Below the pieces are notes generated by a model, which worked only from the letters and a program-made list of their open reading frames with translations, had not been told where the DNA came from and ran no database searches. The translations under genes were made by a program, and so were the position numbers. A DNA stretch of 32,000 nucleotides from Desulfosporosinus lacus DSM 15449. GTDB taxonomy: Bacteria; Bacillota; Desulfitobacteriia; Desulfitobacteriales; Desulfitobacteriaceae. Position 1 is the first letter of the stretch, and each line of letters begins with the position of its first letter. The stretch is taken from NCBI RefSeq assembly GCF_900129935.1, contig NZ_FQXJ01000009.1, positions 106,298 to 138,297 of the forward strand, in the 5' to 3' direction. Shown in pieces: positions 6,419-32,000 of the stretch.

Positions 6419-6430
6419 ATGCAACGCTCC

Positions 6431-15011: not shown

Positions 15012-15527
15012 CTAATCAACAGAAGAGGTCCATAGGATTTCTTTTAACTCCGCATCATACGCTCGAACTTCTGCGGCCAAACCGTTGCTGGCCAGATAGA
15101 TCATGATTATATTGGTGGGCTGTAAAGTCTCTGGAATGACAAGCACCGTTTCATCAGTTTTATCTGTATCATCCGCTTTAAGGGTTTCAACTCCAAAACC
15201 TTCTTTACCCTCTGCTACCTGTTGTGTTGTGGTTGTGTCCAACTTACTTATGTAATTAGGAATAAATCCAGCAGCAGTTACCACACCATCATCGTCCTTC
15301 ATGTTTTCGGGATATGTTCCATTTTCAACTTGATACCGATCTAAGGCAGCTTTAACTTGATGTGCTGTTGCCACATCTGCTTTTTGCCGTGCGTTTGTTG
15401 TACTTGACACTAATTTTGGGATCGCTATAGCTGCCAGCCCGGCAATGATAATGATCACGGCTAACACTTCGATTAGGGTAAATCCTTTGTCCCGTTTGAG
15501 ATAATTCACACTTTTCTCCTCCTTCAT
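15012..15527 (-). CDS. pilA: Type IV major pilin (PilA-like)
   Basis: Class III signal: ...KRDKG/FTLIEVLAVIIIIAGLAAIAIPKL. ATG 15527 (GAGGGGG SD) or GTG 15509 (GGAGGAG SD, giving a 9-aa leader) are both better starts than the tracked 15548. Confidence 0.85.
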   Translation of the reverse strand: MKEEKSVNYLKRDKGFTLIEVLAVIIIIAGLAAIAIPKLVSSTTNARQKADVATAHQVKAALDRYQVENGTYPENMKDDDGVVTAAGFIPNYISKLDTTTTQQVAEGKEGFGVETLKADDTDKTDETVLVIPETLQPTNIIMIYLASNGLAAEVRAYDAELKEILWTSSVD

Positions 15528-15614
15528 CTTAAATAACCCCCTCTTCATCAGATAATCTTAAGCAGGGTTTGCAATTTGGCGTAAACCAAATAGGTAACAT
15601 CAGACCCGACCGTT

Positions 15615-15650
15615 CTTGCCCCAGAATCAAACGCGCGATTCTGGGGCAAG
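15615..15650 (-). promoter_or_regulatory. GC-rich stem-loop between pilC and pilA (CTTGCCCCAGAATC-N8-GATTCTGGGGCAAG)
   Basis: 14-bp perfect stem with no U-tract after it on the minus strand. It could be an attenuator, a processing site or a stabiliser rather than a canonical terminator. Confidence 0.5.
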
Positions 15651-15713
15651 TCGAGGAGAAGGCTCCCACCCTTGTCGGGATTGCCCAAACATACTAAACT
15701 CCAGGATATTTTT

Positions 15714-15762
15714 CTGACCTCAGGCCTCTGACTTCCGCCTTCTGCCTTCTGATTTCCGGTCT
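15714..15762. repeat. Seven tandem degenerate heptamers (plus strand: CTGACCT CAGGCCT CTGACTT CCGCCTT CTGCCTT CTGATTT CCGGTCT)
   Basis: Read directly. The array abuts the pilC stop codon; on the coding strand it is purine-rich (AAGGCAG-like units). Confidence 0.7.
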
Positions 15763-15763
15763 G

Positions 15764-16969
15764 TTATTCAAGATGTGAACTGAGATCAAAGACAGGAAGC
15801 ATGACCCCGCCTGCAACAAGGCTGATCAGCCCAGCTAAAGCAAGAATCAAAACAGGTCCAAGCATACGCATTAAACGATCTAGGTGTTCCTCGAGTTCAC
15901 GGCGAAAAATCCGTGTGACATAATGCAGCATCTGATCCAGTTGACCCGCTTCCTCGGCAATTCCTATCATTTCAGCCCCTTCCTTGGGAAAGATTCCACT
16001 CGAACGCAGCAAAGGTGCCATTCTCTTTCCCTGACGAACATTTAGTACGAGATGGTTTGTCAACGCCAGCATCTCCGGACTGCGCAACGATCCTGCTGTG
16101 AGACGCAGAGCTTCCAACAAGGGAATTCCAGCACCTAATAAGCGAGCCAACATTCTGCTGAACTGAACTAAATCCCTAAGACGATAGACCTTTCCGATGA
16201 GTGGAGCGCGACCCAGCAAATCGTCTAAACGAATTTTCCAGTGATCCGGGCTCGTAAATTTCAGAACCAGCAGACTACCGCCTACTAATCCAACAACCCC
16301 CCCTAAGAAAAGGGGAAGTTTTTGACTGCCGGCAAAAATGACTCTCGTCAAAAAGGGTAATTCAGTGGCACCTACACTTAAAAACAGTTTTTCATACATA
16401 GGAAGAACCCACACGGAAAGAACATAAAGTACCAGGATAACAGCAGTAAACAATAGCATTGGATAGGCCAGAGCAGCCTTAACCTTTTGCTGATAAACCT
16501 GTTCCTGATCTAACTCATCTGCCACTTCACTGAGAACCTTTCCGACAGTTCCCGTGTATTCCCCCGCTTTAATCATGGAGAGTACAAATGCGTTAGGGGA
16601 AGGATTCACAAGGGCTAAAGCTTCTGATAAGTCACTGCCTGATTCCACTCGCTCCTTAACGCTTTTCCATTGTTCCTGCTCAAAAGATCTTTTCTCTTCA
16701 GGGGAGATCATCATTTCCAAAGCCTGAAGTATGGGAATTCCCGCTTCCAATAAGGTAGCTAACCGACGAGCGAAACTGCTCCACTTTAAATCAGCTCTGG
16801 CCGGTAATAATACGTTCTTCCAATTCAGGGTTGCTCGAACCCATACGGGGAAGTATCCTGCCTTCCTTAAGCGGGTTTGAACCTCAGTACTCTCATCACC
16901 TGCCCATGCTCCGTGCCGTATTTTTCCATTTAAGTCGACAGCTTTCCATAGAAAATACTGCCTGCTCAT
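15764..16969 (-). CDS. pilC: Type IV pilus platform protein (GspF/PilC family)
   Basis: 401 aa with the two-fold T2SS-F repeat architecture and three TM blocks. ATGA overlap with the pilT stop. Confidence 0.93.
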   Translation of the reverse strand: MSRQYFLWKAVDLNGKIRHGAWAGDESTEVQTRLRKAGYFPVWVRATLNWKNVLLPARADLKWSSFARRLATLLEAGIPILQALEMMISPEEKRSFEQEQWKSVKERVESGSDLSEALALVNPSPNAFVLSMIKAGEYTGTVGKVLSEVADELDQEQVYQQKVKAALAYPMLLFTAVILVLYVLSVWVLPMYEKLFLSVGATELPFLTRVIFAGSQKLPLFLGGVVGLVGGSLLVLKFTSPDHWKIRLDDLLGRAPLIGKVYRLRDLVQFSRMLARLLGAGIPLLEALRLTAGSLRSPEMLALTNHLVLNVRQGKRMAPLLRSSGIFPKEGAEMIGIAEEAGQLDQMLHYVTRIFRRELEEHLDRLMRMLGPVLILALAGLISLVAGGVMLPVFDLSSHLE

Positions 16970-18012
16970 CTCCTCATGCAGTCAGGGCTCTGCATCTTTT
17001 CCTGAGCCACCTCGTAAGACACCAGACCCCTTTGCACTAAATCCATAATTGCCTTATCCATAGTTTGCATTCCTAACTTGGCATTCGTTTGGATAACCGT
17101 TGGAAGCTGATGAGTTTTGCCTTCCCTTATAAGGCTGCGAACCGCTGGCGTAGCCATCATAACCTCGATAGCGGCCACTCTTCCTTGCTGATCTGCTCTA
17201 GGAAACAATTGTTGAGACATAATCCCCTGTAATACTGCCGCCAGTTGCACCCGAATTTGCTGCTGTTGGTGAGGGGGAAAAACATCAATCATCCGGTCCA
17301 CCGACTGGGTGGCGTCATTTGTATGAAGGGTGCTAAAAACCAAGTGCCCAGTTTCTGCGGCTGTAACAGCGGTAGCGATAGTTTCTAAATCCCGCATTTC
17401 TCCAACCAAAATCACATCCGGATCTTGACGCAAAACAGCTCGCAGGGCATTCGTAAATGAATGGGTATCGTTACCAACCTCCCGTTGATTGACTAAACTC
17501 AGTTTATGTCTGTGCAAATATTCGATCGGATCTTCAATAGTCACGATGTGGCAAGCCCGTGTTCGATTGATATAGTCAACGAGGGATGCTAAAGTAGTTG
17601 ATTTACCACTTCCGGTTGGGCCGGTCACCAGGACTAATCCTTTATGCAGTTTAGCCAGTTCAATACTTACTGGCGGAAGTCCTAACTCTTCCGGACTGGG
17701 AATGACAAAAGGAATCAAGCGAATAACTATTCCGATAGATCCTCTCTGACGAAATATATTAACCCGATAACGTCCAACCCCTGCCAAACTATAGGATAGG
17801 TCTAATTCTCCATATTCAGCAAACCGTTTGGCTTGCTTTTCATCCATCAGAGATTGGGCAAAATTATTTAAATCAGCCTGCGAAAGTTTTTCCATCTGAT
17901 TTTGAACCAGTGAACCATTAATACGTAAAACCGGCGGGCTCTCCACTGTCAAATGAATGTCTGACGCCTTATTCTCTCCAGCCAAAAGCAAAAGCTCTTT
18001 TAATGAAAACAT
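16966..18012 (-). CDS. pilT: Twitching-motility retraction ATPase PilT
   Basis: 348 aa: ASDIHL, Walker A GPTGSGKST, TIEDPIE, RQDPDVILVGEMRD, GHLVFSTLHTN. Typical PilT size with no N-terminal GspE_N domain. Confidence 0.93.
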   Translation of the reverse strand: MFSLKELLLLAGENKASDIHLTVESPPVLRINGSLVQNQMEKLSQADLNNFAQSLMDEKQAKRFAEYGELDLSYSLAGVGRYRVNIFRQRGSIGIVIRLIPFVIPSPEELGLPPVSIELAKLHKGLVLVTGPTGSGKSTTLASLVDYINRTRACHIVTIEDPIEYLHRHKLSLVNQREVGNDTHSFTNALRAVLRQDPDVILVGEMRDLETIATAVTAAETGHLVFSTLHTNDATQSVDRMIDVFPPHQQQQIRVQLAAVLQGIMSQQLFPRADQQGRVAAIEVMMATPAVRSLIREGKTHQLPTVIQTNAKLGMQTMDKAIMDLVQRGLVSYEVAQEKMQSPDCMRR

Positions 18013-18027
18013 TTCTTCCGTCTCCTC

Positions 18028-19725
18028 TTATCCTTGTATTCCGGATGTGACACGTAATACTTCCTCCACGGTCGTAAGTCCTTGGATCACTTTAAACATC
18101 CCATCTTCAAAAACCGTAAGCATCCCGGAAACCATCGCTTGTTGTTCAATGTCTCTGGCATTTTGCATAGATAGGACGAGTTCTTTAATCTCCTGATTAT
18201 ACAGCAAAAATTCATGTACCCCAATCCTGCCACGAAATCCAGTTCCCAGACAATCCGGGCATCCTGCGGCACGATGCAGTTGGTCGACTGACCCCGGTAA
18301 ACGGAGTACCCTTTTCTCCGCCTCAGAAACCTTATACTTAATCTTACAATCTTCACACAACCGGCGCACCAGGCGTTGAGATAATACCCCACTGACCGCT
18401 GAGGCTAAGAGATAGGGTTCTACCCCCATATCGATGAGCCGAGCTAAGGCCTCTGCTGCCGTATTAGTATGTAACGTTGATAACACTAAATGTCCGGTAA
18501 GGGAAGCGGTGATGGCGATTCTCGCTGTTTCTTCATCACGGATTTCTCCAATCATGATCACATCCGGATCTTGACGCAAGATATGTTTTAACCCCACCGG
18601 AAAGCTGAGCCCTGCGGGAAGGTTAACTTGTACCTGATTCACCCCAGACAATTGATATTCGACAGGTTCTTCAATTGAAATAATATTTTGCTCCTCAGCG
18701 TTTAATTCTCTGAGCAGGGCATAGAGGGTAGTGGTCTTGCCGCTTCCCGTTGGACCCACGACCAGTATCAAACCATTGGGACGTTTCAATAAGGCTTGTA
18801 CTCCTGCCTCAACCTCTAAGCGCATTCCCAGATCATTAAGCGGACGCTGAGCCATCTCCGGGTCTAAAATTCGCACAACTATTTTTTCCCCATACACAGT
18901 AGGCATCGAGGACATTCGCAGGTCAACGCGCCGAGGACCTGCGTTAAACGTCATTCGGCCATCTTGAGGAAATCGCCGTTCAGCCACATCCATTTGAGCC
19001 ATCACTTTCAGGCTGGAGACAATACTCCGAGCGGCCTTGGCCGAGAGATCATGTTTTCTAATAAGTTTACCGTCAATTCGGTAGCGCACCACAAAAGCAC
19101 TTTTCCGGGGTTCCCAATGAATGTCGCTGACTCCCTGCACGACAGCCTCGTGTAACACGGAATGAACGAATTTAAGGGTTGGTGCCTCATCCTCTTGGGA
19201 ATCTAACTCAGCAGTCTCGGAAAACTCGACCGACCAAACGCCTTGATTTTGCAAAACATCCTCTGCAAGGTTTGCCAGACGGGCGACGGATTGTTCTACC
19301 GTTAAACACTGTCGAATTGCAGCCTCAATTTCTTCCTTCATAGCAAATACAGGCTCAATTTCCAGCCCTGTAAACATTCTGACATCCCGGAGGGCCCGTT
19401 CATGGGTGGGATCTAACATGGCGACTCTCAAAACCCCGGAATACCGTTCAAAGGGGATAAGGGTGTAACGGCGAGCCATTTCTTCAGAAATTAGACCTGC
19501 TACAGCAGGGTCAATTGCGACCCTGGTCAATTTTACTTCCGGGATCCCCAGATATTGTCTTACAGCCTCCGATAAGCCAGCTTGGTTCAACGCACCCATA
19601 CGCACAAGCGTATCCCCAATTGGTTCTCCGGCCTGCAAGGCTAATTCTAACCCGGCAGATAATCCAACTTTATCAAGAAAGCCATTAGCTAGTAGAAACT
19701 GACCAAATTCATGATTGTTTTTCAT
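18028..19725 (-). CDS. pilB: Type IV pilus assembly ATPase PilB (GspE family)
   Basis: GspE_N domain, Walker A GPTGSGKTT, RQDPDVIMIGEIRD, GHLVLSTLHTN and a tetracysteine motif CEDC...CPDC. The start was moved to ATG 19725, just after the upstream TGA; the tracked 19773 overlaps the previous gene. Confidence 0.93.
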   Translation of the reverse strand: MKNNHEFGQFLLANGFLDKVGLSAGLELALQAGEPIGDTLVRMGALNQAGLSEAVRQYLGIPEVKLTRVAIDPAVAGLISEEMARRYTLIPFERYSGVLRVAMLDPTHERALRDVRMFTGLEIEPVFAMKEEIEAAIRQCLTVEQSVARLANLAEDVLQNQGVWSVEFSETAELDSQEDEAPTLKFVHSVLHEAVVQGVSDIHWEPRKSAFVVRYRIDGKLIRKHDLSAKAARSIVSSLKVMAQMDVAERRFPQDGRMTFNAGPRRVDLRMSSMPTVYGEKIVVRILDPEMAQRPLNDLGMRLEVEAGVQALLKRPNGLILVVGPTGSGKTTTLYALLRELNAEEQNIISIEEPVEYQLSGVNQVQVNLPAGLSFPVGLKHILRQDPDVIMIGEIRDEETARIAITASLTGHLVLSTLHTNTAAEALARLIDMGVEPYLLASAVSGVLSQRLVRRLCEDCKIKYKVSEAEKRVLRLPGSVDQLHRAAGCPDCLGTGFRGRIGVHEFLLYNQEIKELVLSMQNARDIEQQAMVSGMLTVFEDGMFKVIQGLTTVEEVLRVTSGIQG

Positions 19726-19729
19726 GCCC

Positions 19730-20113
19730 TCACCAATGCAATTCCTGATAACCCTTAATGACCCAAGTTCCATTAACTAACTCTAACCGCTCCTCAATTC
19801 TTCGAACAGCTAATCCGGAAAGTCCTTTAGACGTCACTTTATACTCCCCTCCACTAAACTCAATTAGGATATCGACCTGCCCAGTATCAAATGACAAACT
19901 CCCTTGCCGCAGTTCCGGATTAACCAGCAAATGGGCTTTAGCCCACTCAATCCCTCCCTCAGCAATGTAGAGGGCTTGTCTGCTTTGAGTTTCACGTTTT
20001 ACCATGCGGTTCTCTGCATTGGCCTTTAGATAGACCTCCATCCCCAGTCCCGAAAACAAGGTTAAAAGCAAGAGAAGGAGAAGGCTCAAATAACCCGATT
20101 GATTTTGCACCAT
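19730..20113 (-). CDS. PilX-like / minor pilus component with an N-terminal hydrophobic anchor
   Basis: From Met71 of the tracked ORF: MVQNQSGYLSLLLLLLLTLFSGLG... The longer tracked N-terminus overlaps the previous gene and looks non-coding. Confidence 0.5.
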   Translation of the reverse strand: MVQNQSGYLSLLLLLLLTLFSGLGMEVYLKANAENRMVKRETQSRQALYIAEGGIEWAKAHLLVNPELRQGSLSFDTGQVDILIEFSGGEYKVTSKGLSGLAVRRIEERLELVNGTWVIKGYQELHW

Positions 20114-20136
20114 TGTTTTGGGAACCCTTCTATTAA

Positions 20137-20664
20137 TCAAAGTACGGAGGGCATTTGTGGTGCAAGTGAATATACCCGTGGTCTGATAAGCGTTTGCCAA
20201 GTGACAATTTGCCCATCCACGTTTGCCTGTAAGAAGATTTCCCACAATCCCGGCTCCACCTCCGCACATTTCCATCCAATCATACAGCTCGCCACCGGTT
20301 GGGGCACTTCTGCATGTCTCCAATAAAGATCTTTCTGTCCATCATGATCTAAATCATCGATAAAATAGGAATCAAGCCTTGGCAGAGGGTTAGAATCATC
20401 TGCTAAGGGTAACACCTTCAATACACCGGGATCTGTCCAGCTTGCAGTTTCGGACATGCGAATTGCATCAGAGACCGTCTTTCCAGCCGTCATGACGGCA
20501 TAATGTGCTTCCAAGTGATTCTTGAGAGCACGTGCTCCACGCCATTGATCCGTAAACAGCCGCATCGCCATCAGCAAGAAAATGCCGGAAATCAATAAAG
20601 CAACCAACACTTCTAAAAGGGTTAAGCCTCGTTCTGAATGATCCGTCCTCCTATTCAACCGCAT
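20137..20664 (-). CDS. Minor pilin (PilW-like) with a prepilin signal
   Basis: MRLNRRTDHSERG/LTLLEVLVALLISGIFLLMAM. GGAGAG SD. 14-nt overlap with the upstream gene. Confidence 0.7.
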   Translation of the reverse strand: MRLNRRTDHSERGLTLLEVLVALLISGIFLLMAMRLFTDQWRGARALKNHLEAHYAVMTAGKTVSDAIRMSETASWTDPGVLKVLPLADDSNPLPRLDSYFIDDLDHDGQKDLYWRHAEVPQPVASCMIGWKCAEVEPGLWEIFLQANVDGQIVTWQTLIRPRVYSLAPQMPSVL

Positions 20665-21073
20665 AAAGGCTCTCCAACTTATATTGATAAGGGTTTCCCC
20701 GTTCCGTCCAAATGACTTCTACACTTACTTTTAATAGTTGGGGGGTGTCATGCCATTCTGAACATATTATCCAACGGAATTTCCCATCTGTTCCTTCTAT
20801 CGCTCCACCTGGGATACAATTTCGGTCAGCGATATTATCTCTCCACTTATGAGCTGCCAAATGATCCATTGTTGCTTGAGCCAGATTAGCACCCTCCATA
20901 AGAGTTGTGGCCCGGCGAGATTCTGAAAGCGCCTCAACTGTCAATTCGAAAAGAACACCAAATCCTAAAGAGAAAAGAAACAGGGCAAATAATACATCAA
21001 ATAAAACATATCCCTTCGCAGTGTCGAAGTTATTGCTTTTTGGGATGCTCCCTTCCCCCCTCCATGGTTTCAC
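20651..21073 (-). CDS. Minor pilin-like protein (PilV/GspI-like) with an atypical Asp at +5
   Basis: ...DTAKG/YVLFDVLFALFLFSLGFGVLF. GTG start with weak SD. Confidence 0.6.
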   Translation of the reverse strand: MKPWRGEGSIPKSNNFDTAKGYVLFDVLFALFLFSLGFGVLFELTVEALSESRRATTLMEGANLAQATMDHLAAHKWRDNIADRNCIPGGAIEGTDGKFRWIICSEWHDTPQLLKVSVEVIWTERGNPYQYKLESLYAVE

Positions 21074-21138
21074 TCACGTTATATCCATTTCCCAATAAAA
21101 AACCATGTCATCTCTTTAAGTGAACGAAGGTTAGACCA

Positions 21139-21492
21139 TTAATTAGCCGAGGAGTTGTTGACTCGCCCCGACGAATCAAGCTGGTAACTCTGCTCAGAGT
21201 TAAAAGGATTGCTTGGAATTTCATTAAGGTAGGGACCTTGCCAATCACTCATGCCCTTCTGAGAATATACCAAATCAGTTACACTGTGCGGATAAGTACC
21301 GACATCAATCTTGTAAAGCTGGGCGGCTCCTTCGATTCTTTGGATGTTGGCCCGATTCATTTGCAAGCGAACATGTTTGGAGGCTGAACCGTAATAAGGG
21401 GTAAATGAGGTTAGTAGAACTCCCATAAGGAAAAGGACAACCAGAACTTCCCATAAGGTGAAACCTGATAGTCGTGACTTGTTATTTCTCAT
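21139..21492 (-). CDS. GspG-like pseudopilin / pilin
   Basis: MRNNKSRLSG/FTLWEVLVVLFLMGVLL...QLYKIDVGTYPHSVTDL...WQGPYL..IPSNPF is the T2SS-G type signature. The tracked start 21549 is a TTG extension. Confidence 0.8.
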   Translation of the reverse strand: MRNNKSRLSGFTLWEVLVVLFLMGVLLTSFTPYYGSASKHVRLQMNRANIQRIEGAAQLYKIDVGTYPHSVTDLVYSQKGMSDWQGPYLNEIPSNPFNSEQSYQLDSSGRVNNSSAN

Positions 21493-21694
21493 CAAGGAAA
21501 TTCTTCTCGGATAATTCACGCTTCTCAATTCTAAACTCACAACTTTCAACTCAATACAAGATTCCTAACACACAATTCTTCTTCTTTCTCTGTCCATTAA
21601 GAAATCCCTTCCTGACTCGACATATCTTTCTCGAAAATACTTTTAGTTACCATTTTCCCCTATTAATTCCATAGCATTACATCGATATGTACTT

Positions 21695-21829: not shown

Positions 21830-23266
21830 TTAGGCCTTATAACTAAATGCATCCTTAAACCCATACTCATTCCATTTTTCTTTGACCACTTCCAGCACTG
21901 GTTCTGATAAAGTGATATTGGTGGGTTTTTCTTTCCATTCATAGGGAATAGTGCAATCCATGATAATCCTGGAGGTAATGTCCCTGGCTCCGATGGGCAA
22001 AGAGGGATCCAAGGGGGTTGAACGAGCCCTTGAGATAATTTGGCAGCCACGCAAAGGATTCATTCTAGTCGTCATTGCCCAAAGGACACGACCCATATCA
22101 TCAGCTGGAATATCCTCATCGACTACGACAATTACTTTAAATCCGTAGGATCCTGTCGTCGTAGCAATAACCGCATTGCCAACGTGATCTGAATGACCGG
22201 GATACATACATTTTACCGAGACGACGGCCATATATCTTCCGGATGACTCTGGCGGTACATAGACTGATTGGATACCGGGAACTTTCATTTGTTCTAAGTC
22301 AGACCACAATGTCGCAGTGCGGTTCATCGCCTGAATCATGTGGGTATCTGTCACAGGTCTTCCTACCGTTGTAGAATGGAAGATCATATCATTACGATAA
22401 GTGACGGCTTTGACATTAATATAGTGTCTGGGAGTAGTCCCTACGCCCGAATAGTAGCCCGTATATTCTCCGAAGGGTCCTTCTGCTCGTAATTCTTCCG
22501 GCCATAACTCACCCTCAAGAACCATTTCTGCATTCGCTGGGATGGGTAAATCGACATATTCTCCTTTTACCACTTCTACAGCAGAACCACGCAGAGCTCC
22601 AATGTAATTATACTCATCTTCTCCCGCACTAATTGTCGTACTGGAAGCCAGGAACATTAAGGGATCATACCCTATAACGACAGCTACTTGCATAGGTTTA
22701 TTGAGTCCGATATATTTCTTCCGGTGTAAGTCGCCATGTTTTCCTTTGATGAACATGACTCCAACGGTATTTTTATCAAGCATTTGCATCCGGTAAGTAC
22801 CCAGGTTGATCCATCCTGTCTCAGGGTCTTTAGTGATACAAGTGGCAAAGGTCCCAATATATCTGCCGCCGTCCCTTTCATAAAATTTAGGAACCGGGAA
22901 TTTAAATAAATCAACGTCGTCCCCTATATCGATATTTTCCTTAACTGCTCCGGTTGCAACATACACCGGGGGAATCAGGGTCTTGCATCTGTCTACCCAT
23001 GCTCTGGCCATTTGAGTTTGGGTCGTCTCTATAGGCATATTCATAGCAATTGCTAAACGTTTAGTGCTGGATAAGGCACCGACAAATACTTTGCCGCCTT
23101 TATAGTCTTTAACATTTTCAAAAAGTAAGGCCGGACCTGTTTTCTCTTCATTAACTTTGGCAATATGGGATAGTTCGAGATTCCAATCGACCTCATTTTT
23201 AATCCGCAACAGTTCCCCGTTTTTTTCTAGTTCACTGATAAAATCCCGCAAGTTCTCATTTGGCAT
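21830..23266 (-). CDS. UbiD-family prFMN-dependent (de)carboxylase
   Basis: 478 aa: MPNENLRDFISELEKNGELLRIKNEVDWNLE, GEDEYNYIGALRG, AEGPFGEYTGYYSG. These are UbiD metal/prFMN and catalytic Glu motifs. GGGGGA SD. Confidence 0.95.
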   Translation of the reverse strand: MPNENLRDFISELEKNGELLRIKNEVDWNLELSHIAKVNEEKTGPALLFENVKDYKGGKVFVGALSSTKRLAIAMNMPIETTQTQMARAWVDRCKTLIPPVYVATGAVKENIDIGDDVDLFKFPVPKFYERDGGRYIGTFATCITKDPETGWINLGTYRMQMLDKNTVGVMFIKGKHGDLHRKKYIGLNKPMQVAVVIGYDPLMFLASSTTISAGEDEYNYIGALRGSAVEVVKGEYVDLPIPANAEMVLEGELWPEELRAEGPFGEYTGYYSGVGTTPRHYINVKAVTYRNDMIFHSTTVGRPVTDTHMIQAMNRTATLWSDLEQMKVPGIQSVYVPPESSGRYMAVVSVKCMYPGHSDHVGNAVIATTTGSYGFKVIVVVDEDIPADDMGRVLWAMTTRMNPLRGCQIISRARSTPLDPSLPIGARDITSRIIMDCTIPYEWKEKPTNITLSEPVLEVVKEKWNEYGFKDAFSYKA

Positions 23267-23401
23267 ACTATATCCCCCTTTTAATTCTTAATAAGAAGAC
23301 TCTTCGTTACCGCAATTTGACCCTGCTTTACCCTTTCCCTTTAAAACCTCTCTTTGGACGGGTTCCCCTTAAATCTCCTTTGATTCACTTCACCTCCCTT
23401 T

Positions 23402-25054
23402 CTAACTTATCTTTTCTTCTTCCATCTTTGCTGTAATAATTTCCCGCAACCTGCTTTTGTTGACTTTAGAATCGGAAGCAAGTGGGAAAGTATCCACGAT
23501 CTCTAAGTGCTCAGGAAGTTTGTATTTAGCAAGTTTCTTTTCATTGAGGAAATTGACCATTTCCTCAAAAGTCAATACCCCCTCCTTATTATTAGGGATA
23601 ACAAAGGCGCAAGCCTTTTCACCCATAATCTTATCGGGCATAGCAACGATCGCTACATTAGATACCTTTGAATGGGCCATCAAAATGTTTTCTATTTCGC
23701 CGGGATAAATATTTTGCCCCCCGCGGATAATGATATCTTTCTTTCGGCCAACGATCATAATAAATCCGTCGTCGTCTATTTTAGCTAAATCTCCGGGAGA
23801 GGCCCAACCCTCGCTGTCATAAGCCTCGGCAAAGGTTTTTACCGGGTCACGGTAGTAACCGCCCGAATTCTGGGCACCACGGAAATACAATTGTCCAACT
23901 TCACCCTGTGGTAATACATTGCCATCATCATCGACGATTCTTATTTGATTGCCCGGCAAGGGTTTCCCGACGGTGGTGCGGCGCTTTTCAGCAGAATCAT
24001 TGATATTAATCCCCGTAACAGAACCCGTATCTTGAGAACCATAGGTACTTATTATTGGGCCATTGAATCGCTGTTCTACTTCTTCCGCAAGTGTAGGGGA
24101 AAGATAACCTCCCGCGCTGCGTATAGCCCGAATTGAGCTTAAGTCATATTTCTCTAATGATTCTTGCATAATCATGGCCAACTGAGCAGGTACTACGCAG
24201 GGAATTGTTACTTTTTCCTTCTCAAAAAACTCCAGGGCATTTTGGGCACTGTAGTCATAGAGCAATACTATCTTGGCAGCTGCTTGGGGAGCACAGAAGT
24301 AAGTTGGAGTACCACCGGCAGCGCCAGCCGCCGGGGCAACGGCACAGAGCACATCCTTAGGGCTCAGTTTCCAGTTCCTTACATGAGTTTTAGAACTCCA
24401 AAGGCGTGCAGCTATGGAATATTCAACAACTTTAGGCACCCCGGTCGTTCCGGTAGTAGTGCTTAAGAAGCCCACATGGGTCGGATCAAATCGTCTCTTA
24501 GTCAGGTAGTCCACAGGATATTTTTCTTCTAAAGGATCATTTACAATATCTTCAAAGGAAATTACCCCTTTAGGAACATCCTCACCGATTACGATGATAT
24601 TTTTAAGTAGTGGCAGTTGTTCCTTTAGTTCTTGATACATTTCATAATAGTCAAAGTTTCTATACGAGCGGGAGATAATGACAGTCGTTGCTTCAATCAA
24701 GGAAATTATTTCTTGACATTCTTTGTGACGCAAGGTGTGCATTAAGGTCATTGAAACAATTCCCGCTTTTTCACAAGCAACCCTGGCGATAAACCCTTCT
24801 ACACAATTGGGCAAATGAACCACTACCCTGGCATCTTGAGGAATACCTAATTCGATAAAAGCTAAAGCAAGCCGATCGCTTTGCTTTTTTGCTTGAAGCC
24901 AGGTTAAACGAGTTCCTTTGGAATCAACCAAAGCCTCTTTATTGGGAAACTCCTTAGCGTTTCTATCCCAGAAATCCGAAAAAACTTCATTCGTCCAATA
25001 CCCTTTGGCAGTAAATTCCTCTACTTCTGCTTTGCTGTACCTAACAGGAATCAT
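23402..25054 (-). CDS. Aryl-acid adenylating enzyme / aryl-CoA ligase (ANL superfamily, DhbE/EntE-like clade)
   Basis: 550 aa. The N-terminus YSKAEVEEFTAKGYWTNEVFSDFWDRNAKEFPNKEALVD resembles 2,3-dihydroxybenzoate-AMP ligases. A3 motif STTTGTTGVPK, and a C-terminal Lys in SKVNKSRL. The start overlaps the upstream stop (ATGA). Confidence 0.88.
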   Translation of the reverse strand: MIPVRYSKAEVEEFTAKGYWTNEVFSDFWDRNAKEFPNKEALVDSKGTRLTWLQAKKQSDRLALAFIELGIPQDARVVVHLPNCVEGFIARVACEKAGIVSMTLMHTLRHKECQEIISLIEATTVIISRSYRNFDYYEMYQELKEQLPLLKNIIVIGEDVPKGVISFEDIVNDPLEEKYPVDYLTKRRFDPTHVGFLSTTTGTTGVPKVVEYSIAARLWSSKTHVRNWKLSPKDVLCAVAPAAGAAGGTPTYFCAPQAAAKIVLLYDYSAQNALEFFEKEKVTIPCVVPAQLAMIMQESLEKYDLSSIRAIRSAGGYLSPTLAEEVEQRFNGPIISTYGSQDTGSVTGININDSAEKRRTTVGKPLPGNQIRIVDDDGNVLPQGEVGQLYFRGAQNSGGYYRDPVKTFAEAYDSEGWASPGDLAKIDDDGFIMIVGRKKDIIIRGGQNIYPGEIENILMAHSKVSNVAIVAMPDKIMGEKACAFVIPNNKEGVLTFEEMVNFLNEKKLAKYKLPEHLEIVDTFPLASDSKVNKSRLREIITAKMEEEKIS

Positions 25055-26319
25055 TGATTAATTCCTCCTTCATAAATAGGTTCTGCTTCAAAAACAGGTT
25101 TTACCAAGTCCTTAAACGCCTTAATAACGGCCTCCCCAAACTCCGGTTCATCAATATTAGCGTCAACCTCAATCACTTCGATATGCTCAGCAGCCAGCTC
25201 TTTGAAAACTTTTACAAAAATCAAATCACTTTCCGGTTCAAAGATAGCAGTACCTGCTTTATCGAAAGAGGCCCAGCCTTTCAACGGAATCAAGAACTTT
25301 ACGGGACCGCAGGCTGCATTTAGTTTTTCGGCCATTGCCCGCGCTACTACTCTTAATTCATCCGAGTTAAGACGCAAGAAAGTGCGCAAGGCATCGAGAT
25401 CATACTTTTTTCGTTCGTAATAATCAGGCTTATATTTACTCCGTGGAGGAGTCATTAAATTTACAGCACAGGGCGCGATAATCTGGGGAATACCGATTTT
25501 GCCGGCAGCTTCAAGTCGTTTTTTCCCTGCCGATCTGGTTCCGCCAAAAATTTCCTCCCCTACTCCGCCAGGTGCCAAATCAATAACAGCTTTGAACATG
25601 CCCTCTCCACTCATCATCTCCTCCATAGCCTTATCGGCTACCCCGGTTGCAGAAAAGCCGATAATCTGATACCCTTCCACCTCCAAACGGTTGCGTACAA
25701 AATTGGCAGTTTCTTCACATAAGCTCAGTTGGGTCATAGCTATATAATCCTTAGGTCTTTCCTCTTTTCCCGGTACTTTCTTCTCCGATTTTTGGGTCAT
25801 ACCCACAATTGCGCCTGCCGCCTGATCTAAGATATCTCTTATTAAGTCGTTTAAGCCTGTAAAATCAATAACCGAGTGAAAGATAGTAATATCAGAGGTT
25901 CCAAAGTAACGGCTTGCTAACCCCTGTGAAGCGGCAACACTGCTAACCATAGATTTAGGAACACCGAAAGGTAACGTTCTCATTATGTTCGTGACTAAGA
26001 GACTGTTCGTGGCACCGCCGATCCCAATGACGCCCTGAATCTTCCCCTCAGCATAGAGTCTTTTAAGCTTGGCAGAAGCACCGGCAGTAATGATTTCGGC
26101 AAGTCGAACGCGGTTCTCTGTGGAAAAGACTGTTTCAGCCGGATTGCCAAGGGCAAAAATTTCTTCACGTGTAACGTCTGCCGGCATCCCCGGCTGTCCT
26201 CTGGTTCCTAAATCAAAAATAATTGTTCGGCAATTTCTTGCTTCGATTTGCTTTTTTAGATAATTAGTTTCGGCGGCCTTAGTATCCAAGGTACAAAGGA
26301 TAGCGATTGTCTTGCTCAT
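25051..26319 (-). CDS. UPF0261 family protein (Tm-1-like ATP-binding domain), paralog 1
   Basis: 422 aa: MSKTIAILCTLDTKAAETNYLKKQIE...GVIGIGGATNS...FGVPKSMVSSVAS...DITIFHSV.D..GLN. AGGAGG SD. Confidence 0.85.
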   Translation of the reverse strand: MSKTIAILCTLDTKAAETNYLKKQIEARNCRTIIFDLGTRGQPGMPADVTREEIFALGNPAETVFSTENRVRLAEIITAGASAKLKRLYAEGKIQGVIGIGGATNSLLVTNIMRTLPFGVPKSMVSSVAASQGLASRYFGTSDITIFHSVIDFTGLNDLIRDILDQAAGAIVGMTQKSEKKVPGKEERPKDYIAMTQLSLCEETANFVRNRLEVEGYQIIGFSATGVADKAMEEMMSGEGMFKAVIDLAPGGVGEEIFGGTRSAGKKRLEAAGKIGIPQIIAPCAVNLMTPPRSKYKPDYYERKKYDLDALRTFLRLNSDELRVVARAMAEKLNAACGPVKFLIPLKGWASFDKAGTAIFEPESDLIFVKVFKELAAEHIEVIEVDANIDEPEFGEAVIKAFKDLVKPVFEAEPIYEGGINQ

Positions 26320-26429
26320 TAAATCCTCCTTTGAACAGTTTTTGTAATATTCTAAATCTTATGTTATCAGACAAATAATTCTATAACTATTCTCATATTG
26401 GGTAAAAATCTTGCGAATATCTTAGCTAC

Positions 26430-26455
26430 TTTAGTCGTACGTGCTCACCCCTTGG
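26430..26455. promoter_or_regulatory. Candidate operator site A (TTTAGTCGTACGTGCTCACCCCTTGG)
   Basis: It shares TTTAG-N3-TAC-N5-CACCCCTTGG, including an exact 10-mer, with site B at 29047-29072. It lies 110-135 bp upstream of the UPF0261-ligase-ubiD operon. Confidence 0.45.
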
Positions 26456-26499
26456 TACCTTTCATCCTGCGGTCGCCTCTTAATAATTAGCGTCTATTC

Positions 26500-26523
26500 T
26501 TAGGGGTACTGCTCTGTACCCCT
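26500..26523. promoter_or_regulatory. Candidate operator site C / hairpin (TTAGGGGTAC-TGCTCT-GTACCCCT)
   Basis: Perfect 8-bp inverted repeat of the same half-site as sites A and B. It lies 30 bp after the regulator stop, so it could equally be that gene's terminator. Confidence 0.4.
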
Positions 26524-26553
26524 GTTTGTATTGTTCAAAATTCAGCGCTGCAC

Positions 26554-28902
26554 TCAATTGATAAGTTTTAGGGCTAACTGTATCTGCAACCCCACATCGG
26601 GATCATCCATATCAATTCCCGCTATCTCCTCTATCCTCTTCAAACGGTATTTCATGGTGCTGTGATTGAGAAAACCTTCTCTTGCGGCCTTTAAGATATT
26701 GCCATTATTTCGATAATAAAGTTCCAACATGCTTACTAACTGAGCATTATGTTTCCGGTCGTAATCAATTAAGGGGCGGAGTACCCGGTTTGCAAATCTT
26801 GCGAACCTTTCCTTATTGATTTCCAACAGCGCAAACACCCCCAGACGCTCATAGGACATCATCCGGTTTTCCTGGTTCAGGCTTTTCATGATCTCCAAAG
26901 TACTGGTGGCTTGCCAGTATGATTCCTTAAATTCGTCAAAACGATGGCAGTTCCCACCTAGGGCCAACCACCAGACAGTCTCACCAGGTTGTTCGCTTAA
27001 TTCTTTCTCAATTGCTTTGGCCAAGGGATTGTTCTTCTCACACACATTTAAAGCGGCTAACACAAGGATATAGCGGTTGCTGATGACAATACTCCCGGGG
27101 GATTCCCGCTGGACTGCCTCTTTCACCAATTCATAAATGCGCCGTTTGGCAGACGACCCTGGGTATGAAGCTTCTCTGCTTTCCACATCGATAATAAACA
27201 CTTGATAGGTATCTGCAAATACAAACCCCAACTGGGCTGAGCGGTGATAGGCTGCCTCTTCAGATTCGTAGTTGCCTGCTATCAAATCTTCAATGAAATC
27301 TTCTCTTTGGCGCATTTCCACTGCCAAGGCTGCTTTTTGCTTCAGTAATTCAAGAGCAAAGACCCTTCCCGCCTGCTCCATGGCAATATAGTCCAACTCA
27401 AACAGCCTTTTTTCCTTTTCCAGCGCTGACACATACCCAAAAACTTCCTTACCGGCAACAATGGGCACGATTATCTGCCGCCTTCCCCCAGAGTCTGTCT
27501 CAAGAGTAACCAGACGCTTATCATTCACGAGGGCCTGCATTTCCTGTCGATACCGCGGGACTTTCATCAGATGCCCAATTGAGAGAAATCCATTTTCCAG
27601 CTCGGTATTCCCTCCGGATGCTGAAATCAGTCTGAAATTTTCATCCTCCACCCACACATGGCAGTTGATTAACTCTGCCAGTGTCCGGGCGATCGCCTCC
27701 AGTCCCTGACACTCCAGGACCAATTGGGTTAACTGGGTGTGAATATCGCTGGACTTCTTGAGCTTAGCGTGCTGAGCAGTAAGGACATTGTTAAGTTGGT
27801 TAAGCTGAAGCACTTTTTCCTGTAGTTCTTCGTCTGTTCTTTCATATACACGGGCATTTTGGATCGCTATCGCCGCTTGTGCTCCAAGAATTTGCAACAG
27901 TTCCTGATCTTCATGGTTGAAAACCCGGTTGCCCGGTTTTTTAACCACTACCATGGCACCAATCATAGACCCTTTGAAATAAAGAGGTACTCCGAGGGAA
28001 TCTTCCTGTACCACAATGGCCCGTCCTGTCTTGAGCACAGGAGTAAGAAGCTCGCCGGGATCATTTGTAATCTCCGACCACACTTCCGCTTCCTCGGTCC
28101 TGTACACGAGAAATTGGCCATCTTCCATAACAAGGGCCATGCAAGAGGCCTGTGCAAAGAACATTTTCGCGGCGTACTGGATAAACCTCCTTGGCAGTTT
28201 ATCCGAATCGTAATTAGTGGTGATTTCTACTGCAGCCTCGTTTAAGCCTCTCCACTGCACAACTCGCTCCCTTTCCTCGGTCACCATTTTTTGCAGGCTT
28301 TTAAGCACTGAACTAGGCCGCAAGTCTTCAATATACCTTGCCGCCTCTCTGCCCCAGGCTTCCAGCGGACGTAATTCCCATTTACAGTGTTGGTCTCCTT
28401 TGGCACCGCACATGGTCTCCACAGATACAATTTCCCGTCCCATAAACCCACTGGCATAACCGCTGGCATATCCGGATACCGTCCAACAGACTGCTTCCGT
28501 GGCTTGACCATAAAGTTTAAGATGTTGCTCTACTTCATTCGAATTATGCCATTCCCCTCGCATGAGGAAAGTCCCCTCAGCGCGGTTAAATTCTAAATGA
28601 TCACATTTGACATGGGCCGAACCCTCGATGGTATGGATCATTGGCCCTGCCAACATCCACTCGGCATCAGTCTCAAAATTGAACATATTCTTTACGCTCA
28701 TGACATCAGCATAACCACAACGGTACCCAAAGCGGGTAAGAACCCCCCGGGCATTGTCCTCCCCCAGTGACTCAATCAATTCCTGTCGCAGTTGTCCAAG
28801 GGCGTCTGCATTGAACAACAGCATTCGGTTGCCCCGAAAGGTCATTGTTCCCCTCTCTCTGTCGAGGGTGAGAAAATTCTCAAAATCAAACACTGGTTTC
28901 AT
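26554..28902 (-). CDS. Hybrid transcriptional regulator: XylR_N + V4R aromatic-sensor module, GAF domain, PucR-type C-terminal HTH
   Basis: N-terminus: MTFRGNRMLLFNADALGQLRQELIESLGEDNARGVLTRFGYRCGYADV (XylR_N-like). EAVCWTVSGYASGYASGFMGREIVSVETMCGAKGDQHCKWELRP is V4R-like. Middle: GAF-like. C-terminus: FLNHSTMKYRLKRIEEIAGIDMDDPDVGLQIQLALKL (PucR HTH). There is no AAA+/sigma54 module. ATG 28902 follows GGGGGG; the tracked TTG 29001 extension has no SD. Confidence 0.85.
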   Translation of the reverse strand: MKPVFDFENFLTLDRERGTMTFRGNRMLLFNADALGQLRQELIESLGEDNARGVLTRFGYRCGYADVMSVKNMFNFETDAEWMLAGPMIHTIEGSAHVKCDHLEFNRAEGTFLMRGEWHNSNEVEQHLKLYGQATEAVCWTVSGYASGYASGFMGREIVSVETMCGAKGDQHCKWELRPLEAWGREAARYIEDLRPSSVLKSLQKMVTEERERVVQWRGLNEAAVEITTNYDSDKLPRRFIQYAAKMFFAQASCMALVMEDGQFLVYRTEEAEVWSEITNDPGELLTPVLKTGRAIVVQEDSLGVPLYFKGSMIGAMVVVKKPGNRVFNHEDQELLQILGAQAAIAIQNARVYERTDEELQEKVLQLNQLNNVLTAQHAKLKKSSDIHTQLTQLVLECQGLEAIARTLAELINCHVWVEDENFRLISASGGNTELENGFLSIGHLMKVPRYRQEMQALVNDKRLVTLETDSGGRRQIIVPIVAGKEVFGYVSALEKEKRLFELDYIAMEQAGRVFALELLKQKAALAVEMRQREDFIEDLIAGNYESEEAAYHRSAQLGFVFADTYQVFIIDVESREASYPGSSAKRRIYELVKEAVQRESPGSIVISNRYILVLAALNVCEKNNPLAKAIEKELSEQPGETVWWLALGGNCHRFDEFKESYWQATSTLEIMKSLNQENRMMSYERLGVFALLEINKERFARFANRVLRPLIDYDRKHNAQLVSMLELYYRNNGNILKAAREGFLNHSTMKYRLKRIEEIAGIDMDDPDVGLQIQLALKLIN

Positions 28903-29036
28903 TTGCGGCCCCCCAATATTAATTACTTTTTTTAACTCATCCATTCGTATAAACCAACGCAAATGAGAGTGGAGTGGGACTCTGGACTCAGTTCCCCTCA
29001 AGCGGGTTTGTACAAATTAATGAATTTGTTTTAAAA

Positions 29037-29130
29037 TTTTCCCCAATTTAGGGATACTAAGGCACCCCTTGGGAAATTGACAAAATTGTCAAAGAGTTTT
29101 TCCTCACTTTAGGAATAGTAAGGCAAAACC
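29037..29130. promoter_or_regulatory. Divergent control region: two ~28-bp direct repeats (29037-29064 and 29098-25) carrying operator-like sites B and D, flanking the inverted repeat TTGACAA-AA-TTGTCAA (29077-29092)
   Basis: TTTTCCCCAATTTAGGGATACTAAGGCA versus TTTTCCTCACTTTAGGAATAGTAAGGCA: 24 of 28 identical, 61 bp apart. Site B continues into CACCCCTTGG. Confidence 0.5.
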
Positions 29131-29268
29131 AATCATGCTAACATTTAATTATAGTCTGAAAGTTCAGAATATACAGGCTTGTTAAGTTAAAATGTACCAC
29201 TCTTCAGGTCAAAAGCCACTTTTTATAGAGGGCAAAGATTAAAAAACTTGAGAAAAGGAGTAATTATC

Positions 29269-30513
29269 ATGAAAAATATTTTGATCGTAGCTTGTCTGGA
29301 CACCAAGAGTACAGAGGTTCTTTTTTTAAAAGAAAGAATTGAAACCTTCGGAGCCAAAACAATTATCATCGATGCCGGAATCTTGGGAGAGCCCCTTTTT
29401 CCGCCGGATTTTACACGAGCGGATGTAGCGGAAATGGCTGGTACGACCCTGGAAAAGGTCAGAAAAATCCCCTCCGAAGGCCAGGCCATGGATATTCAAA
29501 TCAAAGGCGCTATTGGCATAGCACAGAAACTGCACAGTGAAGGTAAGGTACATGGAATCCTGGGTATAGGAGGGGCCATGGGTACCGGCCTGGGAACAGC
29601 GGTAATGAGCTCTTTTCCTATCGGAATTCCGAAAGTTATGATTTCTACTGTGGCTGGGGTCGGTAATTTAGTAGGAGTCTTCGTCGGAACTAAGGACATT
29701 AACATGTTTCACTCGGTGGCGGATGTAGCCGGACTGAACCGGTTGACCCGAACTATTTTCTCCAATGCAGCGGGAGCGGTTGTGGGCATGGCAAATGCCG
29801 GTGTTGATAAACTTGAAAATAGAAGGCTGGTTGCCGTTTCAACCCTTGGCACTACGGAACATGCTGCCGAAAGAACAAGGGCACTGCTTGAGCTGGCCGG
29901 TTATGAATCCGTGACTTTCCACACAACAGGTGTTGGCGGTCGAAGCCTGGAGCACTCGATAATAGATGGATTGGTTGACGGAGGGGTAATAGAGTATTCT
30001 CTACATGAATATATCGATCGGATAGCAGGGGGGCTATACCAGGCTTCTGATGATCGATACGAAAACGCCGGCCTTATGTCTCTACCTCAGGTATATGTTC
30101 CCGGTTCTACTGATTTTATTGTTGAGGGGCATGGTAAGGAGAAGTACCAGGGTCGTAAAACTCATATGCATAATCAGGCCATCATGTTGTACCGAACCAG
30201 CCCGGTTGAAATGAAACAGTTGGGAGAGGAAATCGGTCAGAAGCTGAGTAGGAGCAAATCTCCGGTTACGGTTGTAATTCCAATGCGAGGCTTTAGTGTC
30301 CACGACCGAGAAGGCGGTCCACTCTGGGAACCCGAGGCACTTTTGGAGTTTGCTAAGGGCATTGAGAGTAAGGCCAATACCATGCTCAAAGTCAAGAGAG
30401 TGGATGCTCATGTTCTCGAAGAAAGATTCATTCAGGAAGCTTTGGACTCATTCCTGGAAAACGCTAAAATTGTTGACACTATGGCTGCGATTGACGTTAG
30501 ATCAGCCGGATAG
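29269..30513 (+). CDS. UPF0261 family protein (Tm-1-like ATP-binding domain), paralog 2
   Basis: MKNILIVACLDTKSTEVLFLKERIE...GILGIGGAMGT...IGIPKVMISTVAG...DINMFHSVADVAGLN is collinear with paralog 1. ATG 29269 follows AAAGGAG; the tracked 29248 is a TTG extension. Confidence 0.85.
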   Translation: MKNILIVACLDTKSTEVLFLKERIETFGAKTIIIDAGILGEPLFPPDFTRADVAEMAGTTLEKVRKIPSEGQAMDIQIKGAIGIAQKLHSEGKVHGILGIGGAMGTGLGTAVMSSFPIGIPKVMISTVAGVGNLVGVFVGTKDINMFHSVADVAGLNRLTRTIFSNAAGAVVGMANAGVDKLENRRLVAVSTLGTTEHAAERTRALLELAGYESVTFHTTGVGGRSLEHSIIDGLVDGGVIEYSLHEYIDRIAGGLYQASDDRYENAGLMSLPQVYVPGSTDFIVEGHGKEKYQGRKTHMHNQAIMLYRTSPVEMKQLGEEIGQKLSRSKSPVTVVIPMRGFSVHDREGGPLWEPEALLEFAKGIESKANTMLKVKRVDAHVLEERFIQEALDSFLENAKIVDTMAAIDVRSAG

Positions 30514-30537
30514 TGTTATCCCACAGCAAGGGTTCCT

Positions 30538-30559
30538 AAGAGGAGGGTTTCCTCCTCTT
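30538..30559 (+). terminator. Intrinsic terminator of UPF0261 paralog 2
   Basis: AAGAGGAGG-GTTT-CCTCCTCTT followed by TTCCTGCTTT, 25 nt after the stop. Confidence 0.8.
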
Positions 30560-30774
30560 TTCCTGCTTTACAAAGCTTAAGCTCTGTGACAGTCTGGGCA
30601 GGAATTTGTAATTCATCCTTGACACTCCTTTCAGAATCCGGGCTATTATTTTTGAATATTTAGAACTTTCTAAAACCTTACCATATATTGAAAGAAGGTT
30701 ACTATCCCCATAATAGTTAAAAAACCTATTCGAGAATTTGTACAATTTGGCTAAAATTTATTCGAGAGTGAATT

Positions 30775-30832
30775 TATATGGCAAGAGCCGCCTTTACGTT
30801 CAATTGAAACGCAGGGCGGCTCTTGCCATATA
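30775..30832 (-). terminator. Long hairpin after ubiX (18-bp perfect stem TATATGGCAAGAGCCGCC / GGCGGCTCTTGCCATATA, 22-nt loop containing TTCAATTGAA)
   Basis: Read directly. It lies 32 nt past the ubiX stop with no clear U-tract. Confidence 0.5.
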
Positions 30833-30863
30833 ACTGAACAACCTTTCTCAAGGGTTGTTCTTC

Positions 30864-31448
30864 TTACATTGTCCGCAGTTTCTGCCGAGTTCCTCCGCCC
30901 TCCCAGCGTTTAAACAATTGGTGACTGACGTCAAATTGGTCCAGGGCCTTGCCCACAGTCTGATTGATGATATCATCGATTGTCTTAGGCATGTGGTAAT
31001 AGGCGGGCATAGGCGGGAGAATGACTGCACCCATTTCCGCCACAGCCGTCAGTAACTTAAGATGTCCAATATGAAGAGGGGTCTCACGAGGGATAACTAC
31101 CAGTTTCCTTCTTTCCTTCAGCACTACATCAGCCGCTCGTACCAAAAGCGAGTCGTTATAGGAATTGGCTAAAGCTGAAAGGCTCTTAATGGCACAGGGT
31201 GCTATGAGCATTCCGTCCGTTTTAAACGAACCACTGGAGATGGAAGCTCCTATGTCCCTGTTATCGTAGACATAGTCCGCTAAGTTCTCCACTTCCTTCA
31301 CACTAAAATTTGTCTCCGTTTCAATAGTTCTTTTGGCGCTATCCGTCAAAACAAGATGGGATTCTATTTGGCAAGCCCCTAAAGTCTGCAACATTCGAAT
31401 GCCGTAGATGGCGCCGGTGGCACCGGATATACCCACAATCAACTTCAT
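30864..31448 (-). CDS. ubiX: Flavin prenyltransferase UbiX (prFMN synthase)
   Basis: 194 aa: MKLIVGISGATGAIYGIRML...LVLTDSAK...PCAIKSLSALANSYNDSLL.RAADV.LKERRKLV. The GGAGGGA SD lies inside the end of ribK. Confidence 0.95.
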   Translation of the reverse strand: MKLIVGISGATGAIYGIRMLQTLGACQIESHLVLTDSAKRTIETETNFSVKEVENLADYVYDNRDIGASISSGSFKTDGMLIAPCAIKSLSALANSYNDSLLVRAADVVLKERRKLVVIPRETPLHIGHLKLLTAVAEMGAVILPPMPAYYHMPKTIDDIINQTVGKALDQFDVSHQLFKRWEGGGTRQKLRTM

Positions 31449-31450
31449 TC

Positions 31451-31855
31451 TTATCCCTCCACTTCACTTTTCTTGAATGTTAAAGTAACTACATCCCCGT
31501 CTACAATGTTTAAGGTGTCTTTAATGCATACCGGCGCCACTATTTCGATTCTTCCAATCGGGTGTTTGGTTTTTCCTGGCATCACAACCGCACCTACAAG
31601 TTGATCATTGATCAAGGTCTCGTAACAGATGGCCGAGCAAGACGTTTTATTTCTCGGCTCGATGAACACCCCGCCAGTCTGACCAAAGCTCACTAAACTA
31701 TCCCAATCAAGTTCAATCATATCTACATTTAAAGTGCCGGGGTAGGGTACAAACCCCAGCTTATTTAAGAATTGCTCAACCACCCAATCAAGCTGGGTAA
31801 AATATTTACCTTCCTTAAAACCACTTGAAACTGTACCCTGCAACTTTATTTCCAT
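31451..31855 (-). CDS. ribK: CTP-dependent riboflavin kinase, archaeal type (DUF120/RibK family)
   Basis: 134 aa: GTVSSGFKEGKYFTQL.W...F...LGF.PYPGTLNV...GAVVMPGKTKHPIGRIEIVAPV.IKD.LNIVDGDVVTL. It is collinear with my recollection of the Methanocaldococcus MJ0056-type enzyme. Confidence 0.8.
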   Translation of the reverse strand: MEIKLQGTVSSGFKEGKYFTQLDWVVEQFLNKLGFVPYPGTLNVDMIELDWDSLVSFGQTGGVFIEPRNKTSCSAICYETLINDQLVGAVVMPGKTKHPIGRIEIVAPVCIKDTLNIVDGDVVTLTFKKSEVEG

Positions 31856-31891
31856 TCCCGAACACCTGCCTATTTAGAGTTGTATCCCTCT

Positions 31892-32000
31892 TCATTCCTC
31901 AATTACCTCGACAACCCCATTAGTGCCATCAATTCGAATGCGTTGACCTGTCCTAATGTGTTCAGTAACCCTAACCCCCCGAGTAATGGTACCTACCACC
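31892..32000 (-). CDS. 3' end of a PEP-utilising-enzyme family protein (mobile His-swivel domain C-terminus); the rest lies beyond the right edge
   Basis: My translation is VVGTITRGVRVTEHIRTGQRIRIDGTNGVVEVIEE*. This matches the ...VVG....AT..I..G..V.VDG..G.V ending of PF00391-type domains. Only 36 aa are visible. Confidence 0.55.
   Translation of the reverse strand, partial: VVGTITRGVRVTEHIRTGQRIRIDGTNGVVEVIEE

Follow-up and report, generated by a model that had tools for sequence, protein, structure and literature searches.

A RibK-like gene of a mainly bacterial PF01982 subfamily lies directly in front of ubiX in Desulfosporosinus lacus and is a probable accessory of prFMN synthesis

UbiX joins FMNH2 to DMAP(P) to yield prFMNH2, and the housekeeping RibF converts FMN onward to FAD. 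The closest described relatives of the gene treated here are two archaeal riboflavin kinases, MJ0056 of Methanocaldococcus jannaschii and RbkR of Thermoplasma acidophilum; their PF01982 family has been stated to be absent from bacteria, and Tyr115 of RbkR has been described as absolutely conserved in archaea (PMC5397151). Purified UbiD enzymes can lack their cofactor despite co-expression of UbiX, as with VdcCD (PMC8379154), and the available part of PMC13040415 lists no flavin kinase among the UbiX-UbiD accessory proteins. Among the papers searched, none links PF01982 or riboflavin kinase to prFMN, UbiX/UbiD, phenylphosphate or benzene carboxylase.

The window is a 32 000-nt stretch of the genome of D. 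lacus DSM 15449, a sulfate reducer. A RibK-like gene of PF01982, W-V subfamily, lacking a wHTH domain (31451..31855, minus strand; 134 aa, ATG start) lies there directly in front of ubiX, encoding flavin prenyltransferase (30864..31448, minus strand; 194 aa). The gap between them is 2 nt (31449-31450), and the ubiX Shine-Dalgarno sequence GGAGGG (31455..31460, minus strand, read 31460-31455), 6 nt from the ubiX ATG, overlaps ribK codons V132-E133-G134; the coordinates confirm the original prediction on both the gap and the Shine-Dalgarno placement. From this spacing and placement we infer co-transcription of the pair.

The protein has a single Pfam match, PF01982 (E 4e-28; 98.2 bits, cut-off 25; profile positions 1-120 of 121), and its only PDB sequence matches are MJ0056 and RbkR. 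Its AlphaFold model (pLDDT 83) has the MJ0056-type cradle-loop barrel fold (Foldseek E 4e-9 to 2e-8, TM 0.71-0.83), with 5TRD and 2VBV among the fold matches at TM 0.79-0.83. The family called from a DUF120/RibK motif pattern is therefore right, although two spacings in that pattern are not (YF-x9-F instead of x6, P-x6-L instead of x4). UbiX scores well above the cut-offs of TIGR00421 (242.6 versus 108.9 bits) and NF004685 (268.6 versus 188 bits), and shares 82% identity with its counterpart in the Thermincola phenol cluster.

The genome holds one PF01982 gene and one ribF, the latter separate, on contig C18. The EF-P encoded in the window groups with proteins of Desulfosporosinus. Contamination or recent foreign DNA was rejected as the source of the RibK-like gene, which sits on a 228-kb contig and has the GC content of the genome (0.42). 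Replacement of RibF was also rejected: the search for a canonical ribF that had been proposed found it in D. lacus and in 13 of 13 other Bacillota carriers of PF01982.

Judged by profile scores, the D. lacus protein is a PF01982 member outside the canonical archaeal RibK/RbkR group; it misses the NCBIfam equivalog cut-offs of ribK_Meth (74 versus 168 bits) and NF010762 (92 versus 279 bits). In an unrooted IQ-TREE tree of 70 sequences, the 26 bacterial rows are set off by one branch (99/86) and the 40 archaeal rows of canonical type by another (100/99), with four Bathyarchaeia rows between them. These four (L057, L063, L074 and L089) are stand-alone RibKs of the W-V type with no ubiX found near them, and both Bathyarchaeia genomes checked have a second, longer PF01982 gene of canonical type. 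Of the top 50%-identity clusters, ~73% (109/149) have the Trp of the W-V pair, which suggests that the subfamily is old and diverse. The D. lacus protein sits with copies from Thermincola and Aromatoleum, apart from the other Desulfosporosinus copy, a placement that fits aromatic clusters moving among bacteria. It belongs to a distinct, mainly bacterial PF01982 subfamily with W-V in place of the invariant archaeal Tyr, a correction to the earlier label of archaeal-type. The suggested archaea-to-bacteria transfer is unsupported because the sequences from bacteria make up a clade of their own and are not nested among canonical archaeal RibKs; the tree being unrooted, no donor can be named.

Active-site residues were compared with those that PMC5397151 lists for RbkR. 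Five of the eight CTP-site residues are identical, two are conservative replacements (L202 to I111, R203 to K112) and one is altered (G104 to K14). The phosphate/metal motif YxGTLN is present as Y38-P-G-T-L-N43, the catalytic Glu is E104 (the proposed base, Glu195 in T. acidophilum RbkR), and Pro93, His98, Gly12 and Gly16 are retained. The cytosine-contact LR reads I111-K112; the second position is Arg in 73/75 archaeal domains and Lys in 13/22 bacterial loci. The Gly-rich loop GxGEG reads GFKEG, with Lys in place of the middle Gly; the original prediction left this change unmentioned. At the flavin site, four of six residues are retained (Pro, Glu, Tyr/Phe and Tyr/His), and Tyr115 and Phe165 are changed, so the canonical archaeal pairing of Tyr115 with an aromatic residue at Phe165 is missing from the D. 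lacus protein. Val25 replaces Tyr115 throughout the subfamily, with an adjoining Trp24 in 22/22 bacterial loci; Ser72, at the flavin-contact Phe165, is private to the D. lacus lineage.

A remodelled pocket might accept a different flavin, either reduced riboflavin or dephosphorylated prenyl-riboflavin, which would permit direct FMNH2 formation or prFMN salvage. We consider this unlikely. The subfamily-wide replacement of Tyr by W-V speaks for it, along with a new Cys73 and Pro67, but neither the catalytic Glu nor the phosphate loops are altered, the Trp could simply take over the stacking of the Tyr, and the W-V copies of Bathyarchaeia have no ubiX close by.

The other two substitutions bear on whether the subfamily supplies FMN while the D. 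lacus copy is weakened or decaying within a partly eroded cluster. G14K and F72S are both private to the D. lacus lineage: position 14 is Gly in 14/14 near relatives, and a 90%-identical relative keeps both G14 and F72. Sequencing error was rejected as their source, the identical protein being found in two other independent samples. Such decay would also suit the gene losses described below, yet the ORF is intact in all these samples, 6/75 archaeal domains have Arg, Lys or Met at position 14, and Cys occupies position 72 in 9/14 near relatives. Against relatives, dN/dS is 0.10-0.17 for ribK and 0.06-0.09 for ubiX; ribK has thus been under purifying selection, and its polarisable lineage-specific changes are 18 synonymous to 7 non-synonymous. 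Decay of this copy is improbable in our estimate.

An alignment scan of genome contigs found RibK homologues where a single-sequence scan found none. Carriers of PF01982 made up 12/400 Bacillota genomes (3% of the sample), 30/301 Desulfobacterota genomes (10%) and 2/42 Desulfosporosinus genomes, with further copies in Aromatoleum buckelii (three) and an Acidiferrales MAG; the carriers found are mostly anaerobes. At least one of ubiX, ubiD, pps or IDI-2 lies within 8 kb of ribK in 10/13 carriers among Bacillota, 22/30 among Desulfobacterota and 2/2 among other bacteria, versus 0/74 archaeal loci. We give these figures as plain counts, with no test, because related genomes cannot be treated as independent, short contigs hold several of the loci, and an exact motif was used to fetch the archaeal set. 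No such core neighbour was found within that distance in 8/30 Desulfobacterota and 3/13 Bacillota carriers (several on short contigs); ubiX is present in 11/13 Bacillota carriers, the other two giving no ubiX match. The adjacency seen in D. lacus recurs, as had been predicted, with ubiX fused to ribK or within 250 bp of it in 3/13 Bacillota and 12/30 Desulfobacterota carriers. The idea that the pair marks heavy UbiD use gains some support: by hand count, PF01982 is found in 8/25 Bacillota genomes with at least two ubiX matches, 2/152 with one and 2/223 with none.

Two UbiX-RibK fusion ORFs were found, with both Pfam domains in each. They belong to one Bacillota genome (G431; L113:3576-4595 and L114:1838-2860), where each adjoins ubiD genes. 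Further fusions are RibK-HAD and His-phosphatase-RibK, and a HAD gene is fused to ribK or less than 1 kb from it in 6/13 Bacillota and 13/30 Desulfobacterota carriers. Other neighbours elsewhere are ribBA, IDI-2, Nudix, PF21758 (which we take to be LpdD-like) and PNPOx-like genes. In another member of the genus (G018, L122:268-2425), ubiX, PF21758, HAD and ribK form a compact, pure cofactor cassette; in a different genome a truncated ribK fragment lies just 5′ of a ribD-ribE-ribBA-ribH operon (L121, G317:C10:7643-7789).

These phosphatases return us to a changed flavin. The W-V subfamily would then phosphorylate reduced riboflavin for UbiX, or prenyl-riboflavin, and perhaps, together with the frequently fused or neighbouring HAD phosphatase, run an undescribed prFMN salvage or trafficking cycle in anaerobes. 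The frequent HAD partner, the use of an unrelated His-phosphatase in one fusion and the mostly anaerobic carriers all favour it; the phosphatase may act on DMAPP instead, and we regard the cycle as doubtful.

We favour a reading in which the gene encodes a monofunctional riboflavin 5′-kinase, probably CTP-using, that raises the FMN consumed by UbiX and so serves as an accessory of prFMN synthesis; this is fairly likely. The RibK-like enzyme would convert riboflavin to FMN, with CTP as the probable nucleotide; the FMN would be reduced to FMNH2, which UbiX would join to DMAP(P), and the prFMNH2 would load a PpcB-like UbiD encoded 7.6 kb downstream. A type-2 IPP isomerase (IDI-2; TIGR02151 above cut-off) encoded 4.7 kb upstream could provide the prenyl donor and is itself FMN-dependent. 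Because UbiX uses flavin as a substrate and RibF drains FMN to FAD, a kinase induced together with the aromatic pathway would enlarge the supply of FMN while that pathway is on. With RibF always present the kinase would be a non-essential booster, and since its relatives adjoin or are fused to UbiX in many anaerobes it is probably an optional, undescribed helper for the flavin supply of carboxylases that degrade aromatics. In favour of this reading are the retained catalytic residues, the fold, the recurrent linkage to prFMN and pps genes, the UbiX-RibK fusions, the copies in phenol clusters and the purifying selection on ribK; the activity, nucleotide and substrate are predictions. Counting against it are the altered flavin pocket, K14, S72, the change of LR to IK, the carriers lacking a core neighbour or ubiX, and the missing PpsB, PpcA, PpcC and PpcD.

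The nearest relatives with contigs read (61-90% identical) are in pps/ppc-type clusters. RibK copies were found in the phenol clusters of Thermincola and Aromatoleum, the Thermincola order being ppsA-ppsB-ribK-ubiX-ppcB-ppcD-ppcA-ppcC-ubiD x3-nudix; another copy in Thermincola has neighbours arranged as in abcD-abcA-bzlA-ubiX, the cluster proposed to encode a benzene carboxylase. In D. lacus a ppsA-like gene (~590 aa, 72% to Thermincola PpsA; 3′ end at 31892..32000, minus strand) lies 36 nt upstream of ribK and is likely the first gene of an operon ppsA-ribK-ubiX. A long hairpin 3′ of ubiX (30774..30833, minus strand; -52.7 kcal/mol for a 105-nt fragment, z -9.5) is probably the end of the transcript. 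No Rfam match was found in the 12 kb around the operon, which therefore has no FMN riboswitch, and a promoter/terminator scan performed at chance level.

Beyond the hairpin come a convergent UPF0261 (MarK/Tm-1-like) gene (29248..30513, plus strand; 9MPY match, E 5e-69), whose product is a possible aryl kinase, then on the minus strand an aromatic-sensing XylR_N/V4R-GAF-PucR regulator (26554..29001, by Pfam), a second UPF0261 gene (25051..26319), an acyl/aryl-CoA ligase (23402..25054) and the PpcB-like carboxylase of the UbiD family (21830..23266; TIGR02724 510.7 bits, cut-off 469; 54% to Thermincola PpcB), a probable prFMN client. Directly downstream of ubiD is a type IV pilus/competence cluster (12126-21549, minus strand), and the window also holds a 1570-aa RHS/YD-repeat protein (6431-11143, minus strand) followed by a 142-aa ORF (5996-6424), likely a polymorphic toxin-immunity pair.

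Upstream, past the window edge, are genes for the PpsA-like protein, a membrane protein, a PNPOx-like protein, the IPP isomerase, an HD protein and an XylR_N/V4R-PucR regulator. The membrane protein (L001:4372-5484, minus strand; 370 aa, no Pfam match) is 90% conserved in the cluster of congener G019 and is possibly a transporter for an aromatic substrate or riboflavin. The PNPOx-like protein (L001:6119-6634, minus strand) recurs near IDI-2, ubiX and ribK in Bacillota, Acidobacteriota and Desulfobacterota, and is a candidate flavin reductase or prFMN-binding protein; a PDB sequence search gave no match, so a PhdC-like role is unsupported.

Only the ppsA-like and ppcB-like genes of the full Pps/Ppc phenol pathway (ppsA, ppsB, ppcA-D) were found; no PpsB, PpcA, PpcC or PpcD orthologue turned up in the D. 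lacus genome (52 contigs, 100% complete by markers). A PPDK_N match on contig C27 was rejected as ppsB, as it belongs to one 870-aa protein. We therefore describe the locus as an aryl-phosphate/carboxylase-type cluster with an incomplete phenol pathway. The UPF0261 family takes in the aromatic kinase MarK (PMC12624787), and the UPF0261 proteins might fill the kinase gap left by the missing ppsB; such a substitution for PpsAB would weaken the argument from these absences for a decaying ribK. The Desulfosporosinus cluster type (21830-32000; L204-L206) combines ppsA(B), a single PpcB-like UbiD, UPF0261, CoA ligase, HD, IDI-2 and PNPOx-like genes, with no ppcA/C/D nearby.

As ribK follows ppsA in a genome lacking ppsB, and in several clusters comes immediately after ppsA or ppsB, its product might be a subunit or replacement of a phenol/aryl kinase and no flavin kinase at all. 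The closest relatives, though, have ppsB alongside ribK, many copies have ubiX or IDI-2 but no pps nearby, and the fusions found join RibK to UbiX and never to Pps; we hold this to be highly improbable.

Flavin supply as an optional aid is in keeping with the congeners. In G019 (C115) the order is ppsA-[123 nt]-ubiX-ppsB, and the spacer (L204:6955-7077) holds a frameshifted 108-nt remnant left over from the 3′ end of ribK (75-79% identity, E 2e-13 to 8e-19) that scores 73 and 93 versus 29 for the best of 500 shuffles. The remnant retains the ubiX Shine-Dalgarno sequence while most of ribK is deleted, so ribK was once in a related cluster and has since been lost; a comparable cluster in G015 has no ribK. 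The gene is dispensable in Desulfosporosinus clusters, and its loss, which could also be cited for decay, is what one would expect of a booster with RibF as back-up. To call it a pathway-private FMN source, as the original prediction did, is too strong because congeners retain the cluster after losing ribK.

If active, the kinase would give the UbiX-UbiD toolkit an accessory that works upstream and could help to load anaerobic phenol, aniline and candidate benzene carboxylases with cofactor; the gene may also help to flag genomes with several prFMN systems. The expected chemistry is already known, unless the substrate differs. Specific to the D. lacus analysis are the congener remnant, the private substitutions and the incomplete cluster.

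Compared with known systems, MJ0056 (EC 2.7.1.161; PDB 2VBU, 2VBV) shares with the D. lacus protein the fold (TM 0.77-0.79), PF01982, stand-alone size, GTLN, the catalytic Glu and PxxTxH at ~32% identity; it differs in Tyr27 (Val with an adjacent Trp in D. lacus), Gly16 (Lys), Phe73 (Ser) and LR (IK), and its kind is archaeal housekeeping, whereas the D. lacus protein would be an accessory beside RibF. The kinase domain of RbkR (5TRD; PMC5397151) is alike (TM 0.83), but the D. lacus protein lacks its wHTH domain and link to rib regulation. Bacterial RibF/RibC (PF01687) has the same presumed reaction yet is a distinct family with a PTAN motif, use of ATP and a fused FAD synthetase. With the pps/ppc clusters and the ani/phe clusters of Desulfatiglans anilini (PMC7500099) our locus shares ppsA-like, ppcB-like, ubiX, CoA ligase and aromatic-sensing regulator genes, while lacking ppsB, ppcA, ppcC and ppcD and having two UPF0261 genes; its cluster type recalls the D. 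anilini carboxylase, which is without a gamma or delta subunit. LpdD and PhdC/YclD (PMC13040415) are likewise products of small, optional genes with linkage to ubiX/ubiD and aid the supply of prFMN; they act after UbiX, in binding and oxidative maturation, whereas the RibK-like protein would act before it.
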